A stretch of 64,000 bases of DNA from Escherichia coli. Its GTDB lineage: Bacteria > Pseudomonadota > Gammaproteobacteria > Enterobacterales > Enterobacteriaceae. The number at the start of each line of letters is the position of its first letter. Position 1 is the first letter of the stretch. Under the pieces are notes generated by a model. It worked only from the letters and a program-made list of their open reading frames with translations. It had not been told where the DNA came from and searched no databases. Made by a program: the position numbers and the translations under genes. This document shows, piece after piece, positions 2,712 to 12,988 of the stretch. The DNA lies in NCBI RefSeq assembly GCF_013315695.1, contig NZ_CP054353.1; one strand, written 5' to 3'.

Positions 2712-3899
2712 TTATTGCGCCGCTGCGTACAGACCGACAATCTGCTCCAGGCTGGCGGTACGCGGGTTACTGCGCAGACAAACATCTTCCAGCGCGGCCT
2801 GCGCCCATGCACCGTAATGCGCAGATGTCGCACCAATATCGCCCAGTCGTTTACCAATCCCGACTTCCGCAATCAGCTCACTTACCGCGTTAATAGCGTC
2901 ACGATCGTCGGATTTTTTAGTTCTCAGCGCCCGGCCAATCTGACTAAACCGATCACGACAAACCATCCGGTTAAATTCCATCACCGTTGGCAGCAACATA
3001 GCGTTCGCCAGACCGTGCGGAATATGCAGCGCCGCCCCTGGCTGATGCGCCATCGCGTGGCACAACCCAAGTCCGGCACTGGAAAACGCCATTCCCGCCA
3101 TACATGAAGCCAGCAACATGCTCTCGCGGGCGGCAAGGTCGTGACCGTAGCCCACCGCTTTCGGCAGCGATTTGCCAATCATCGCAATGGCACCAATCGC
3201 CAGACTGTCGGTAAACGGTGTGGCGTTCAGCGCGCTGTACGCTTCAATGGCATGGGTTAACGCATCAATGCCAGTCATCGCCGTGACATGCGACGGCACA
3301 CCTTCGGTCAATGCGGCGTCGAGGATCGCCACATCCGGCATCAGCGAGGCATGGGCTAACACCTGTTTGCGCCCGCTTACCGCATCGATAATCACCGTCA
3401 CGTTAGTCGTTTCAGAGCCGGTTCCGGCGGTCGTTGGAATGGCAATCAACGGCAGGCGCGGTTGCAGAACGCTGGTTTCTGACATTTCTGCCAGCGTGCT
3501 ATCCGGGTTCGTCACCAGCAACGCCACGGCTTTCGCCGCATCCAGCACCGAGCCGCCGCCAAACGCGATCACCCCGTCACAACCTGATTCACGCAACTGC
3601 GCCACGGCTGCACACACGTCGGTGATGCATGGTTCGCCCACCGGACATGGCCAGAGCGTCATGGCGATACCTTTAACGGCCAGGCTACGCGTCAGCCCGG
3701 CGGTCATCCCGGTCTGATGCAAAAAGCTGTCTGCCATCACGAACAGATGTTTCAGCCCACGCGTTTGCGCTTGCTGCCCACAACTGCTCACCGCGCCCGG
3801 ACCGCAAAGCGTCACCGGTGGAACGCTAAATGTTTTTACCCGTTGCAGATTCAGGGTATCGAACGCCTGAAAGAGCGCGGTCTGCAATTCATTTTGCAT
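2712..3899 (-). CDS. eutG: Iron-containing alcohol dehydrogenase EutG
   Basis: 395-aa ORF with Fe-ADH family features, operon position. Confidence 0.9.
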   Translation of the reverse strand: MQNELQTALFQAFDTLNLQRVKTFSVPPVTLCGPGAVSSCGQQAQTRGLKHLFVMADSFLHQTGMTAGLTRSLAVKGIAMTLWPCPVGEPCITDVCAAVAQLRESGCDGVIAFGGGSVLDAAKAVALLVTNPDSTLAEMSETSVLQPRLPLIAIPTTAGTGSETTNVTVIIDAVSGRKQVLAHASLMPDVAILDAALTEGVPSHVTAMTGIDALTHAIEAYSALNATPFTDSLAIGAIAMIGKSLPKAVGYGHDLAARESMLLASCMAGMAFSSAGLGLCHAMAHQPGAALHIPHGLANAMLLPTVMEFNRMVCRDRFSQIGRALRTKKSDDRDAINAVSELIAEVGIGKRLGDIGATSAHYGAWAQAALEDVCLRSNPRTASLEQIVGLYAAAQ

Positions 3900-8693: not shown

Positions 8694-9391
8694 AGGGATT
8701 GCCAGTTAGCCGGCCAGGCGACATACAGGAATTTCACACTGGATGTCGTACCAAATTCGATGCTGGAGCCTTTCGGGATAAACATCACATCGCCTGCTTT
8801 GGCGATCATGGTTTCGCCTTCGTGGCGAACGTGCAGTTCCCCTTCCAGTACCATATCGATTTCGTCATAGTTGAGGGTCCACGGGAAGAAGGCGTTCTCC
8901 CACTGCATAAAACCGGCGGCCATGCTGCTGCCGTCGTCTCCGGTGACCAGATCCGTTAATCCGACGCAGTGTGGCTGTGCGCCGTCGAAACGACCAAACT
9001 TGACGCTGCTGCCATCAATCACTTTGATGCCGCCTTTGCCGGTCACCGATTTGAAGCTCGGCTGCATTGCACCCTGCTCCAGTGACTGTTTTTCCTTCAT
9101 CACTTTTTCCATCAGCTGCGCGACCAGGCTTTCGGTAAACTGGCCTTCCGGTAGCTGGGCGATGATGGTTTCGCGGATGCGCTGGCTTTCGGTTTTATCG
9201 GCTGGCACGCTGGCGGGAACGGACGTCGTTACCGCAGTCGATTCATCACATTCGGTGATGGTAAAACCCAACAGATCAGCCACTTCACGAGCTTCCGGGG
9301 TAATAATGCTGGCGCGCAGAACCACGGACATTGCCAGTTCGCCGCGCGCGTGTGCTTCACGAATATCATTCGCTGTGATGAGTTTTTTCAC
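8690..9391 (-). CDS. eutQ: EutQ (cupin-fold protein of the eut operon)
   Basis: 233-aa ORF, operon position, recognised sequence. Confidence 0.88.
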   Translation of the reverse strand: MKKLITANDIREAHARGELAMSVVLRASIITPEAREVADLLGFTITECDESTAVTTSVPASVPADKTESQRIRETIIAQLPEGQFTESLVAQLMEKVMKEKQSLEQGAMQPSFKSVTGKGGIKVIDGSSVKFGRFDGAQPHCVGLTDLVTGDDGSSMAAGFMQWENAFFPWTLNYDEIDMVLEGELHVRHEGETMIAKAGDVMFIPKGSSIEFGTTSSVKFLYVAWPANWQSL

Positions 9392-9845
9392 CTGCTTCCT
9401 CCTGTTTGGTGAGAGATGCCAGATAATCCACCAGTTGCTGCACGCTTTGCGGGTCGTGGCTGTTTAGCTCGAAAATCGGCTCTTCGAAGCCCGTCTCAAG
9501 CAATAACTTTCGCGTTGCGGCGACGTCAGCATCTGGCATGTCCGTTTTACTGATGACGGCGATTTGCCGTTTGCTGACGCCAATATCCAGCAACCCGGCA
9601 GGCAACCGACTTTCCGGGTCATTCGCGCCGTGGACATAGATCAGCATGTCCACATCCTGTAGCGTGGTAATTAAGGCGTGATACCAGCGGGGATGGCTAA
9701 AATATTCACCCGGCGTATCAATATCGCCCTTATCATTAAATTCCACGGCCTGTGTTTTTCTTGCGAGGGTATAATTCCCCTGCAACGCATTAAATAACGT
9801 TGTTTTTCCTGCCCCGACGGTACCCACAAACGCAATTCGTTTCAT
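9366..9845 (-). CDS. eutP: EutP (P-loop NTPase of the eut operon)
   Basis: 159-aa ORF with Walker A GTVGAGKTT; overlaps eutQ by 26 nt. Confidence 0.88.
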   Translation of the reverse strand: MKRIAFVGTVGAGKTTLFNALQGNYTLARKTQAVEFNDKGDIDTPGEYFSHPRWYHALITTLQDVDMLIYVHGANDPESRLPAGLLDIGVSKRQIAVISKTDMPDADVAATRKLLLETGFEEPIFELNSHDPQSVQQLVDYLASLTKQEEAGEKTHHSE

Positions 9846-9874
9846 GAATGCCTCGTATTAACTTTTGGTCATTT

Positions 9875-9883
9875 CACAAAGCG
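9875..9883. repeat. Left copy of 9-bp target-site duplication CACAAAGCG flanking IS1
   Basis: Identical 9-mer immediately outside both IS1 termini. Confidence 0.9.
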
Positions 9884-9898
9884 GGTAATGACTCCAAC

Positions 9899-10402
9899 TT
9901 ATTGATAGTGTTTTATGTTCAGATAATGCCCGATGACTTTGTCATGCAGCTCCACCGATTTTGAGAACGACAGCGACTTCCGTCCCAGCCGTGCCAGGTG
10001 CTGCCTCAGATTCAGGTTATGCCGCTCAATTCGCTGCGTATATCGCTTGCTGATTACGTGCAGCTTTCCCTTCAGGCGGGATTCATACAGCGGCCAGCCA
10101 TCCGTCATCCATATCACCACGTCAAAGGGTGACAGCAGGCTCATAAGACGCCCCAGCGTCGCCATAGTGCGTTCACCGAATACGTGCGCAACAACCGTCT
10201 TCCGGAGCCTGTCATACGCGTAAAACAGCCAGCGCTGGCGCGATTTAGCCCCGACATAGCCCCACTGTTCGTCCATTTCCGCGCAGACGATGACGTCACT
10301 GCCCGGCTGTATGCGCGAGGTTACCGACTGCGGCCTGAGTTTTTTAAGTGACGTAAAATCGTGTTGAGGCCAACGCCCATAATGCGGGCTGTTGCCCGGC
10401 AT
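9899..10402 (-). CDS. insB: IS1 transposase InsB reading frame (made as InsAB' fusion by -1 frameshift)
   Basis: 167-aa ORF ...[65 protein letters not shown]; A6C slippery run (minus strand, plus-strand T-run 10340-10345) in the insA/insB overlap. Confidence 0.93.
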
Positions 10403-10596
10403 CCAACGCCATTCATGGCCATATCAATGATTTTCTGGTGCGTACCGGGTTGAGAAGCGGTGTAAGTGAACTGCAGTTGCCATGTTTTACGGCAGTGAGA
10501 GCAGAGATAGCGCTGATGTCCGGCGGTGCTTTTGCCGTTACGCACCACCCCGTCAGTAGCTGAACAGGAGGGACAGCTGATAGAAACAGAAGCCAC
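10321..10596 (-). CDS. insA: IS1 InsA (transposition inhibitor / DNA-binding protein)
   Basis: 91-aa [46 protein letters not shown]... Confidence 0.95.
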
Positions 10597-10646
10597 TGGA
10601 GCACCTCAAAAACACCATCATACACTAAATCAGTAAGTTGGCAGCA

Positions 10647-10970
10647 TCACCCACAAAGCGTATAATTTAATAAGCGTCCTAAACCACTGACGGTTTGTGA
10701 TAACGCTTCTTCTACTGCGCCCACCGAGCCATAAATCACCAGCGCGCCGCTAAAACGGTCGAGAAAACCGATATGCACATCGGCGGCTTTCAACGCTAAA
10801 TCACCGGCGATCATCGCCGTTTCTCCGGGAGTTAGCGTCATAATGCCAATTGCGCCCGCATCCGGAACGCCGATTTTCTTCGCCAGTTCCTCGCCGGGAT
10901 GCGCGATGAGATGCGCCAGTGTGACCTGTTTACCGGGCACAAATTCCTGAATGATGCGTTCTTTATCCAT
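10647..10970 (-). CDS. eutS: Microcompartment shell protein EutS, 3' end altered by IS1 (ends ...NYTLCG; stop lies inside IS1)
   Basis: Starts [15 protein letters not shown]...; reading frame runs into the IS1 right end; deleting IS1 plus one TSD copy restores ...LCEMTKS followed by TAA (rc of 9858-9860). Confidence 0.85.
10652..10660. repeat. Right copy of 9-bp target-site duplication CACAAAGCG flanking IS1
   Basis: Identical to 9875-9883. Confidence 0.9.
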
Positions 10971-11335
10971 GAGTCGCCGCCTGTGAAAAACTTTCGTGTA
11001 TCGTGACAATTTTTCGTCAGAGTAAATAACAAAATTCGGCAAGCGCGTTTAAAAGGTGAGGTAGATCACGAACAATGGGGAAAATACTTTATGCAAAGAA
11101 AATCACATACATCACATGAATACAAACAGGAGTCGATAAGTTTTATTTATCATATGTTACCCACCCCATTTTTAATGGTTCTTCGCATAACCCTATGTAG
11201 CATTTATAATAATTATCAGAATACATATCCCATGAACTGTTGTATTCTGAAAATATTATTATACTCACCCCATTTAAGGTACAACATAAACGATGAGTTT
11301 ATTCAGGGCATAAAAGAAATGGATGGATACCTGTA

Positions 11336-12406
11336 ATGAAAATTCACTACCTTGTCACCACTCTCGAAACGGGAGGCGCTGAATTTGCGATTCCTGATAT
11401 TGTGACTACTCTACAAGATCTTGGTCATGAGGTGAAAATTTATGTATGTGAACCCCGAGATATGGGCGCGGCACCGCGTCTGAAAGCGGCCGGTTTATCC
11501 TGGTGTTTATTATCAAATCGGCGGCGTTCTGTTCCAGTGCTTGTCGGTGCTTATCTGGCAAAAATCATTTACGACAAACCCGATCTCATCTGGACTTCGT
11601 TAAGTTGGGGGACGCGTATTGGACAATGGGGCGGCCGACTTATGGGCATTCCGGTTATCAGTTTTAAACATAGCGCCAGCGTAAAACCAGCAACCTGGCG
11701 TATGCGCAGCATGTCACGTTTATGGATTGGCGATTCTGCAACCGTAACTCAATACCTGCATGAAACCATGCGGATCCCGAAGCAACAAGTGATGTGCTGG
11801 CCTTTTTTTCAGGCTAATCCGCAAGCTGCTCAAGCGAAAAAGTGGGACGGGGTATCAGTTTTACAATTAGGCACCGTTGGTCGCCTGCATGAAGTTAAAA
11901 ATTACGCAGGATTAATTACTGCACTCGCTTCGTTTGTCGATAAAAACCCGCAATTGCGCTCGCGAATCCGACTAACCCTTCTCGGTGAGGGAGCCGAACA
12001 AGAGGTTTTGAAAAAGACCATAACACAACACGCCATGGAGGATGTAGTTTGTTTAGCGGGGTTTTCTGCGGATATCGAAAATTTTCTTGCCGGATTACAT
12101 GTCTATATCCAAACTTCCCGCTACGAAGGGATGTGCCTCGCCGCACACGAAGCCATGAATGCAGGGCTTGCGATCATTACGCCCCCTGTAGGTGAACTTA
12201 AAGAATCGGTAATTGATGGTCATACCGGCTATATACTTAATGGCGAACTAACTCCAGCACTGGAGGAAGTACTTAACCGTATTTTCAATGAACCCACAGA
12301 ATTACAACACTATGGGCAAAATGCGCGTCAGTATGTATTACAGAAATTCAGCCATGAAAATTTTGTCCAGTCTGCAATCAACATTGTTAATAGACTTATT
12401 CACTGA
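11336..12406 (+). CDS. Uncharacterised GT4-family (GT-B fold, Glycos_transf_1-like) glycosyltransferase, 356 aa, in an AT-rich segment
   Basis: N-terminal LETGGAEF...LGHEV motif and C-terminal E-X7-E motif (YEGMCLAAHEAMNAGLAIITPPVGELKESVIDGHTGYIL); about 42% GC over the first 120 nt by manual count; no counterpart in K-12 gene order as recalled. Confidence 0.8.
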   Translation: MKIHYLVTTLETGGAEFAIPDIVTTLQDLGHEVKIYVCEPRDMGAAPRLKAAGLSWCLLSNRRRSVPVLVGAYLAKIIYDKPDLIWTSLSWGTRIGQWGGRLMGIPVISFKHSASVKPATWRMRSMSRLWIGDSATVTQYLHETMRIPKQQVMCWPFFQANPQAAQAKKWDGVSVLQLGTVGRLHEVKNYAGLITALASFVDKNPQLRSRIRLTLLGEGAEQEVLKKTITQHAMEDVVCLAGFSADIENFLAGLHVYIQTSRYEGMCLAAHEAMNAGLAIITPPVGELKESVIDGHTGYILNGELTPALEEVLNRIFNEPTELQHYGQNARQYVLQKFSHENFVQSAINIVNRLIH

Positions 12407-12410
12407 ATAA

Positions 12411-12445
12411 GGCAGTAAAAAGGCATTTTTTGGTACTGCCTTTTC
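12411..12445 (+). terminator. Putative intrinsic terminator of the glycosyltransferase gene
   Basis: GGCAGTAAAAA / TTTTTGGTACTGCC stem followed by TTTT, 5 nt after the stop. Confidence 0.5.
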
Positions 12446-12949
12446 ACCGAATACTATGGTTATCGTACTTGTCGTGGCGATGGGAAAAGTCGTTACAGTT
12501 TTCATTCCCTTGCATAGCCGTGACGCCCCCTTTTCACACACAAAGAAAATGGTGGATGTTTTATACTCCTCCACCACCAAAGGCAGTCAAGATGGATAAG
12601 TTAATGCTCGCCCATGCCCCCAATTTATGGGCCATGGAAAAACGTCTTGCAAACAGCTGTGTACGGGAATAATAGCAGTGCGGGTATGAGCAAGACATTA
12701 TTTTATCATGACGGGCAAAATTGCAGCCGGACCTAGGGCGGTGCATTGCAGATGCTGAAACTGGACCCGCTATGTTTATTATCTCCAGAATTTAATGCGT
12801 CTGGAAGTACCTACAACTGCTGCGCCTTTTATTGATGGCATGCATACGCTTTCTGGTGTTGGCGACGTTACATTCATGATGCCTGGCTACAACTTAAGGG
12901 CTCGCCTCAGCAATTCTGAGTGGATGTACAGCGGCGTATACAGAAGTGG

Positions 12950-12988
12950 GTCAGCAAAACCGCTTACCCCGAATAAACAGGGTAAGCG
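12950..12988 (-). terminator. Putative intrinsic terminator of maeB
   Basis: Perfect 9-bp stem CGCTTACCC/GGGTAAGCG just 3' of the maeB stop, followed on the minus strand by GUUUUG. Confidence 0.5.

Follow-up and report, generated by a model that had tools for sequence, protein, structure and literature searches.

The insertion sequence IS1 of Escherichia coli K-12 and Shigella (isoform IS1A) is 768 bp long, ends in imperfect inverted repeats of ~23 bp and duplicates 9 bp of its target; its insA and insB' frames are joined by a -1 frameshift at an A6C motif into a 232-aa DDE transposase. Classical genetics of gal and lac showed strong, Rho-dependent polarity of IS1 insertions, whichever way the element faced. 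Hybrid (fusion) promoters generated by IS1 were reportedly described by Prentki et al. in 1986. For E. coli and Salmonella in the gut and the urinary tract, the ability to catabolise ethanolamine is regarded as a fitness trait, and in E. coli K-12 the ethanolamine-utilisation (eut) operon is interrupted by the CPZ-55 prophage, which lies between eutA and eutB. More recently documented IS1 hybrid promoters include one in ST131, with a rise of ~7 log2 units in the transcript level of afaA (PMC8764528).

In the stretch of E. coli DNA analysed here (64,000 nucleotides, referred to as the window), the only IS1 copy of the 64 kb lies within the eut operon, near the end of eutS. A fully intact IS1 very probably entered the A+T-rich 3' end of this gene by simple transposition, an explanation that takes in both the regional hotspot and the expected polarity described below. 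Features of the locus are collected in Table 1.

A base-for-base check of the 768-bp element at 9884-10651 upheld all coordinates of the earlier note on this DNA, which had described a complete IS1 with both terminal inverted repeats, insA and insB, the A6C motif and identical flanking 9-mers. The inverted repeats were recovered by a repeat search as 24-nt arms with 79% complementarity, and the ends have the form typical of the family, i.e., an element of ~768 bp bounded by imperfect terminal inverted repeats of ~23 bp that start with GGT(G/A)ATG. Both ends are flanked by the 9-bp repeat. A -1 shift at the A6C motif joins insA and insB into the 232-aa InsAB' transposase (CDS 9899-10596), and this product scored 245 bits against the NCBIfam profile NF033558.1, "IS1 family transposase" (cutoff 100). 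The Pfam domains Zn_ribbon_InsA, HTH_Tnp_IS1 and DDE_Tnp_IS1 match the gene product at loci carrying a 100% identical IS1. In the RefSeq (PGAP) annotation, an "IS1-like element IS1A family transposase" (WP_103215986.1, programmed frameshift) stands between "EutS" and eutP. Identical copies occur in thousands of records, and the copy in the window has intact frames and ends. In every family character that can be tested in sequence, the element is an IS1 of textbook type.

Table 1. Features of the eutS::IS1 locus. Positions refer to the window, except in the last row.
Feature	Position	Strand	Remarks
eutP	9366..9845	-	first of the 16 downstream eut genes; ribosome-binding site and 12-bp spacer intact
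Orphaned eutS 3' end	9858..9874	-	final two bases of the E107 codon, then the MTKS codons and the original TAA; now split from the gene
Target-site duplication, eutP-side copy	9875..9883		CACAAAGCG; direct repeat adjoining IS1; single-copy in IS-free genomes
Complete IS1 (IS1A-type), 768 bp	9884..10651	-	insA and insB co-directional with the eut operon; from sequence, annotation and profile score
IS1 IRR	9884..9906	+	GGTAATGACTCCAACTTATTGAT; terminal inverted repeat, eutP-facing
insB frame, 167 aa	9899..10402	-	intact open reading frame
insA, 91 aa	10321..10596	-	intact open reading frame; GTG start at IS1 nt 56
A6C (AAAAAAC) programmed -1 frameshift motif	10339..10345	-	IS1 nt 307-313
IS1 IRL	10629..10651	-	GGTGATGCTGCCAACTTACTGAT on the - strand; insA-proximal terminal inverted repeat; source of the new eutS stop
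Promoter-like site made by the insertion	10638..10666	+	-35 TTGGCA (IS1 IRL), 17-nt spacer, -10 TATAAT (eutS flank past the duplication)
Truncated eutS, 107 aa, ...NYTLCG*	10647..10970	-	WP_001571747.1; ATG start at 10970
Target-site duplication, eutS-side copy	10652..10660		CACAAAGCG; direct repeat adjoining IS1
Conserved 111 bp upstream of eutS	10971..11081	-	putative site of the EutR-dependent eut promoter; attached to truncated eutS only
Starts of independent target duplications	3244, 3260, 3263, 3276, 3284, 3285, 3295, 3297, 3307, 3328		coordinates of the IS-free reference L021

The uninterrupted, single-copy site is the norm in E. coli. Of the 5426 complete RefSeq genomes of E. coli, 5384 cover at least 80% of the reconstructed empty site in a single place, a count that includes some interrupted genomes whose two flanks had been joined by the search, and strain TCM3e1 matches it at 574 of 574 positions. 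Few genomes share the 1.9-kb glycosyltransferase island located between eutS and maeB; among them are AF14 and MS 21-1, both of which encode an intact 111-aa EutS and carry no IS1 at the site. When IS1 is excised from the window, the two genomes are colinear with it over 8,330 bp, with 2 (AF14) and 3 (MS 21-1) mismatches and not a single gap. Since such near-identical sisters are free of the element, the arrangement points to a clean, simple insertion made after the lineage had parted from AF14 and MS 21-1, and on this comparison the insertion is phylogenetically young. This bears out the description, in the earlier note, of a simple and fairly recent transposition. The alignment with IS-free eutS-eutP junctions that the note had proposed was likewise in agreement: the 9-mer is single-copy in AF14, MS 21-1 and TCM3e1. 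The insertion probably arose within a single sub-lineage of an E. coli clade rich in IS1.

The insertion is not private to one strain and has been inherited by other isolates. Over the 1,351 bp of region 9600-10950, the window shows 100% identity with the chromosome of E. coli MSB1_4I, which came from a rectal swab in Australia. Public assemblies include 479 contigs on which exactly this 107-aa EutS is recorded, and ten of those places were inspected. In three of the ten (L030, L036 and L037) the insertion is the same as in the window, down to the duplication, and the IS1 is 100% identical. In three others (L028, L032 and L034) the eutS-side junction is kept, while phage-tail genes replace the eutP flank; these are derived rearrangements of the window insertion, secondary changes that the element has already brought about within its lineage. 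Thus, six inspected public assemblies have an IS1 in the same orientation at this target. At the remaining four places, all in genomes without the glycosyltransferase island, the same 9-mer is occupied by an IS1 of opposite orientation. Three of these copies are 99.6%, 98.8% and 93.4% identical to the IS1 of the window, and the fourth (L029) is a collapsed copy of 207 bp. Either orientation yields the same ...LCG* protein, because both ends of IS1 begin with GGT(G/A)A; the protein is therefore blind to orientation, and the 479 contigs mix at least three independent events. In strain AF3, from a blood culture in the UK, both IS1 and the junction on the eutP side are identical to those of the window, but eutS has been lost together with its promoter, IS1 abutting the equivalent of window position 11184; this is an IS1-adjacent deletion. 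An assembly artefact was ruled out, the same junctions being present in several independent assemblies.

The positions at which IS1 has entered this region were mapped in RefSeq genomes, in both orientations, onto the IS-free reference L021 (eutS at 3259-3594). At least 12 independent insertions fall within 93 bp at the 3' end of eutS. Reference position 3276 received the window insertion and three or four events in the opposite orientation, position 3297 was used twice, in opposite orientations, and position 3328 was used two or three times. The exact 9-mer target of the window has been used at least three times independently, in both orientations and by different IS1 variants. Some 18 RefSeq genomes (~18) carry an IS1 in these 93 bp, versus ~1.2 expected from the mean chromosomal density of IS1 (64,317 places in 5,424 genomes, with genomes of ~5 Mb assumed). 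The 93-bp stretch is a regional IS1 hotspot. It coincides with a local A+T peak, which reaches 73% in the 30-bp interval holding the window target, and nine further insertions lie in the A+T-rich spacer between eutS and maeB. A preference of IS1 for A+T-rich targets is credited to Zerbib et al. (1985), as cited in PMC9330008. Such a preference would account for the pattern of insertions with no recourse to selection, and the hotspot would reflect this known property of the element.

A different reading would explain the recurrence of IS1, both in the eutS-maeB spacer and at the eutS 3' end, by selection that has, in some niches, repeatedly favored loss of the capacity to catabolise ethanolamine. 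The number of events is suggestive, with more than 25 independent ones in ~0.6 kb around eutS; several come with deletions of eutS, of its promoter or of part of eutP (L017, L020 and L026), and the isolates that carry IS1 originate from many hosts and countries. Selection for inactivation should, however, be blind to position, whereas the insertions cluster in two A+T-rich patches (63-93% A+T in 30-bp intervals) rather than across the coding sequence: the 5' 258 bp of eutS have no mapped IS1 insertion, the first 246 bp of eutP have a single one, and eutQ has another. Moreover, the survey covered a single type of mutation, insertion of IS1, and only that part of the 15-kb operon which lies within ~1 kb of the query flanks. 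Repeated selection is for these reasons regarded as unlikely, and the A+T preference of IS1 is retained as the preferred explanation of the hotspot. An apparent bias of orientation toward the eut genes proved to be an artefact of the search, which had joined only one-strand pieces; a query with flipped IS1 recovered the opposite insertions. In RefSeq, the orientations at the eutS 3' hotspot are roughly even (~7 same versus 4-5 opposite), and a weak skew in the eutS-maeB spacer (8 to 1; estimated two-sided binomial value ~0.04) is not trusted.

The immediate product of the insertion is a shortened EutS. The new stop is a TGA at 10647-10649, nucleotides 3-5 of IRL, and the protein changes from 111 aa (...LCEMTKS) to 107 aa (...LCG), with residue 107 altered from E to G and residues 108-111 (MTKS) lost; five codons are thereby taken off the gene. 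According to the earlier note, the stop lay inside the right end of IS1; it is indeed within IS1, yet that end is "right" by window coordinates only and is, by convention, the left end of the element. Excision of IS1 and one copy of the repeat in silico gives back a EutS of 111 aa ending ...NYTLCEMTKS*, just as the note had maintained for the restored frame and for the actual end, ...NYTLCG. The shorter ending is not that of the reference alleles, a possibility the note had raised against its own reading: the usual EutS of reference genomes is the 111-aa protein WP_000356956.1. The restored protein aligns with the solved E. coli EutS (3I96) over all 111 residues with zero differences. By its sequence, the truncated protein is still a member of the PduU/EutS-type family of circularly permuted microcompartment shell proteins, with a score of 236 bits against the EutS family profile NF012012 (cutoff 123) over profile positions 1-106 of 111. 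RefSeq carries the 107-aa form, WP_001571747.1, with no pseudogene flag.

The earlier note had called EutS the shell protein of the Eut microcompartment, which overstates its place, EutS being one of five Eut shell proteins, and had suggested that the changed C-terminus could matter for shell assembly. In its full form, this reading would hold that the E107G change and the loss of MTKS disturb the packing of hexamers or the assembly of the shell, read-through keeping the other genes of the operon expressed. Certain observations are in its favor. The tail pattern [ILM]-T-[KR]-[ST] is kept in E. coli EutS (EMTKS), Salmonella PduU (3CGI; SITR), C. difficile EutS (4AXI; KITR) and the EutS of 6XPI (PLTKS), and because it is conserved in such distant EutS/PduU homologues, the change of the tail may not be harmless. 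[quoted passage not shown] On the other hand, the last strand of EutS would be mostly retained: in a single-sequence AlphaFold model, which was used only to locate that strand and is indicative only (mean pLDDT 68.5), it spans residues 103-107, four of the five being unchanged and residue 107 becoming G. The truncated protein also remains far above the family cutoff. A shell defect would count only if the other shell proteins and the enzymes are made, and their genes lie downstream of IS1. Furthermore, members of the lineage have lost eutS altogether (AF3) or have it parted from the operon, which speaks against maintenance of an intact system. Given the conserved tail and the part played by EutS in recombinant shells, it is plausible that the truncation affects the protein itself, and this effect is ranked as secondary; that it should be the relevant consequence of the insertion seems improbable. 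The emphasis of the note on the tail is probably misplaced, as IS1 parts the promoter from 16 genes.

eutS is the first of the 17 genes of the operon, and IS1 separates it from the other 16, eutP to eutR. According to the RefSeq annotation, all 16 downstream genes are intact and none bears a pseudogene flag. In Salmonella, EutR acts on a promoter upstream of eutS, and eutR, the last gene, is mainly transcribed from it (PMC10433801). The position of the eut promoter in the window is carried over from that work; the sequence at 10877-11081 is 98% identical to that of IS-free genomes. Transcripts from the EutR-activated promoter would have to traverse 768 bp of IS1, within which only the short insA would be efficiently translated, and most of them would terminate. 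Induction would then largely fail to reach eutP to eutR, less of the enzymes and of the other four shell proteins would be made, and the feedback loop through EutR would break. The predicted outcome is a weak or negative ethanolamine phenotype. Because IS1 stands between the only strong, EutR-dependent promoter and 16 genes, the main effect to be expected is probably polarity, i.e., lost or reduced expression of the downstream eut genes, rather than the change in the EutS tail.

The expected polarity is the least secure part of this account, and the sequence of the element was searched for features that bear on it. Inside IS1, a scan of the eut-sense strand gave no predicted intrinsic terminator, and no Rho-loading signature (C-rich and G-poor) was seen in the untranslated insB region, in which G amounts to 31% and C to 25%. 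As G exceeds C in insB, it is entirely classical genetics that carries the claim of polarity. Rescue of downstream expression by an outward promoter of IS1 was considered and set aside, as no consensus promoter directed from IS1 toward eutP was found (the -10 candidates match at 1-3 of 6 positions). The intact state of the 16 genes and the persistence of the allele in many isolates would also fit a very young insertion or substantial read-through. The deletion and the rearrangements that followed in the lineage agree at least with selection on the intact operon being relaxed.

The insertion also creates a promoter-like site at the junction of IRL and eutS. The site, TTGGCA-17-TATAAT, matches the sigma-70 consensus at 11 of 12 positions and has the geometry of IS1 hybrid promoters (spacing of 16-18 bp), its 17-nt spacer being made up of the 8 nt to the tip of IS1 and the 9-bp duplication. 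Any transcription from it would run antisense across eutS and the promoter region of that gene, in the direction of an acquired GT4 glycosyltransferase gene (11336-12406), which starts ~670 bp away and is the nearest gene in the sense orientation. On this basis the insertion could be thought adaptive, either by antisense silencing of eut or by switching on the GT4 gene, and the repeated use of the 9-mer would be explained thereby. Beyond the close match to consensus, among the 26 mapped IS1 targets of the region the window target alone has a perfect TATAAT at the required distance; the 9-mer has been hit on several independent occasions; no terminator is predicted on the + strand between the site and the GT4 start at 11336; and such promoters have a precedent in ST131 (afaA, PMC8764528).

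Other observations speak against such a role. The match is one of consensus only, and the region holds three promoter-like sites, versus 3.1 expected from shuffled sequences. The other insertions at the 9-mer are opposite in orientation and place the weaker IRR box TTGGAG (3 of 6) beside TATAAT; they are found in genomes without the GT4 island, where nothing in the sense orientation lies downstream. The remaining hotspot sites yield no promoter, and hybrid-promoter formation was rejected as a shared cause of the hotspot, with only one of 26 targets providing a good -10 hexamer. In addition, the GT4 gene has a promoter-like site of its own at 11182-11210, and a TATAAT beside the target would be fairly often expected if IS1 simply prefers A+T-rich DNA. 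An adaptive role for the new promoter is therefore considered very unlikely. A broader proposal would make the 3' end of eutS a natural landing pad for IS1, at which insertions are kept for their rewiring effect: the EutR-inducible operon would be turned off and, at the 9-mer of the window, an antisense promoter would be directed into a horizontally acquired glycosyltransferase gene, the whole amounting to a parallel adaptive switch in gut and extraintestinal E. coli and not a neutral accident. This, too, is considered very unlikely. A simple transposition into a favored A+T-rich target, with polarity as its probable main effect, is preferred.

Full-text searches of the literature turned up no relevant paper on an IS1 within eutS or elsewhere in the eut operon of E. 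coli, and the strain name MSB1_4I occurs in a single, unrelated paper; the eutS::IS1 allele and the hotspot appear on this account to be undocumented, yet they are new instances of well-known phenomena. The insertion is real but ordinary, and what is known of IS1 and of microcompartments is unchanged by these findings. Their interest lies elsewhere. Should IS1 indeed sever the eut genes from their promoter, the lineage would represent a natural knock-down in which the idea of ethanolamine as a fitness trait can be tested. Automated annotation takes the 107-aa EutS as an intact gene, with no flag for the likely polar effect; since annotation is blind to such polarity, surveys of "eut-positive" strains by gene presence will overcount functional operons. 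The 93-bp stretch offers a compact natural example of the target preference of IS1, and the predicted hybrid promoter is a testable case of antisense transcription made by an insertion sequence.

The locus can be set beside several described systems. CPZ-55 in K-12 is likewise a natural interruption of the E. coli eut operon by a mobile element, but it is a different element at a different site, and the operon of the window has no prophage, eutA and eutB being adjacent. With the classical polar insertions in the gal and lac operons, eutS::IS1 shares the placement of IS1 inside a polycistronic operon, between promoter-proximal and distal genes; the classical side of this comparison is long-standing genetics, whereas the eut side is geometry taken from sequence only. 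The IS1-afaA promoter of ST131 (PMC8764528) resembles the site in the window in its outward -35 within the terminal repeat of IS1, its -10 in the flank and its spacing of 17 bp, and differs from it in that the window site is predicted only and runs antisense into the disrupted gene. The closest likeness is to IS1 of E. coli K-12 and Shigella itself, the IS1A isoform, with which the element agrees in length, inverted repeats, target duplication and frameshifted transposase. From that isoform the element itself differs in nothing, and the site of insertion alone is particular.

Rearrangements involving the IS1 element at the 3' end of eutS were observed in several relatives. In three members of the window's lineage (L028, GCA_046116645.1; L032, GCA_043979065.1; L034, GCA_000351945.1), the eutS-IS1 junction was unchanged, and the other side of the element adjoined phage-tail genes (tape-measure-like) rather than eutP. 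This arrangement presumably represents recombination between IS1 copies, by either inversion or deletion, which separated eutS from its operon. The sister isolate AF3, from a UK blood culture, carries both the IS1 and the eutP junction as in the window, together with an IS1-adjacent deletion (equivalent to window 10652-11183). This deletion took out eutS along with the region of the eut promoter and, from the -35 hexamer in the promoter-like site preceding the glycosyltransferase gene, the first two bases.

In strain WS4437A-1 (NZ_CP035822.1, locus L018, 717-2711), a segment comprising eutS and its promoter is inverted between two inverted IS1 copies. The junction sequences imply original targets at positions 3260-3268 and 3710-3718 of the IS-free reference L021, with a putative subsequent inversion between the two copies. 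Another assembly (L029, GCA_949281425.1, CASDMB010000050.1) contains a 207-bp "mini-IS1" at ∼2818-3024, with the same 9-mer and the same duplication as in the window, in which IS1 nucleotides 1-103 are fused to 665-768. Because the two IS1 stubs are symmetrical, this structure suggests a collapse of the short-read assembly rather than a genuine internal deletion.

Features of the eutS-maeB region (window coordinates, except for AF3)
Feature	Position	Strand	Details
Hybrid promoter-like site	10638-10666	+	IS1 IRL -35 TTGGCA, 17 nt, flanking TATAAT
Conserved portion of eutS-maeB spacer	10971-11081		Counterpart within L021 3631-3852
Lower-GC island	11082-12951		1.87 kb; 28-54% GC in 100-bp windows
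Second promoter-like site	11182-11210		TTCGCA-17-TATAAT; upstream of GT4 gene
GT4-family glycosyltransferase gene	11336-12406	+	Inside the island
IS1 in AF3 (L017, NZ_OZ547117.1)	1785-2552

The hybrid site is a candidate near-consensus promoter, which by its sequence would be directed antisense into eutS, toward the GT4 gene. This gene lies in the island that stands in place of 127 bp of the spacer usually present between eutS and maeB, and all NCBIfam matches of its product scored under their curated cutoffs. Of 5426 complete genomes, only 5 have the 100%-identical version; many more carry a ∼91%-identical variant, which frequently adjoins a gene annotated as "glucosamine inositolphosphorylceramide transferase family".

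The promoter-bearing spacer (L021 3631-3852) has itself received nine independent IS1 insertions in other E. coli genomes, eight of them co-oriented with eut and one opposite, a weak skew (∼0.04 by our own binomial estimate). The lineage of the source genome and AF3 is unusually rich in IS1: at least 40 IS1-matching pieces were detected in each (NZ_LR898874.1, the whole source chromosome, and AF3), compared with 11 places in the median genome, and only one copy falls inside the 64-kb window. Four of the mapped IS1 insertions (L005, L009, L015 and L027) are flanked by target duplications of 8 bp instead of 9 bp, a recognised variant for IS1.
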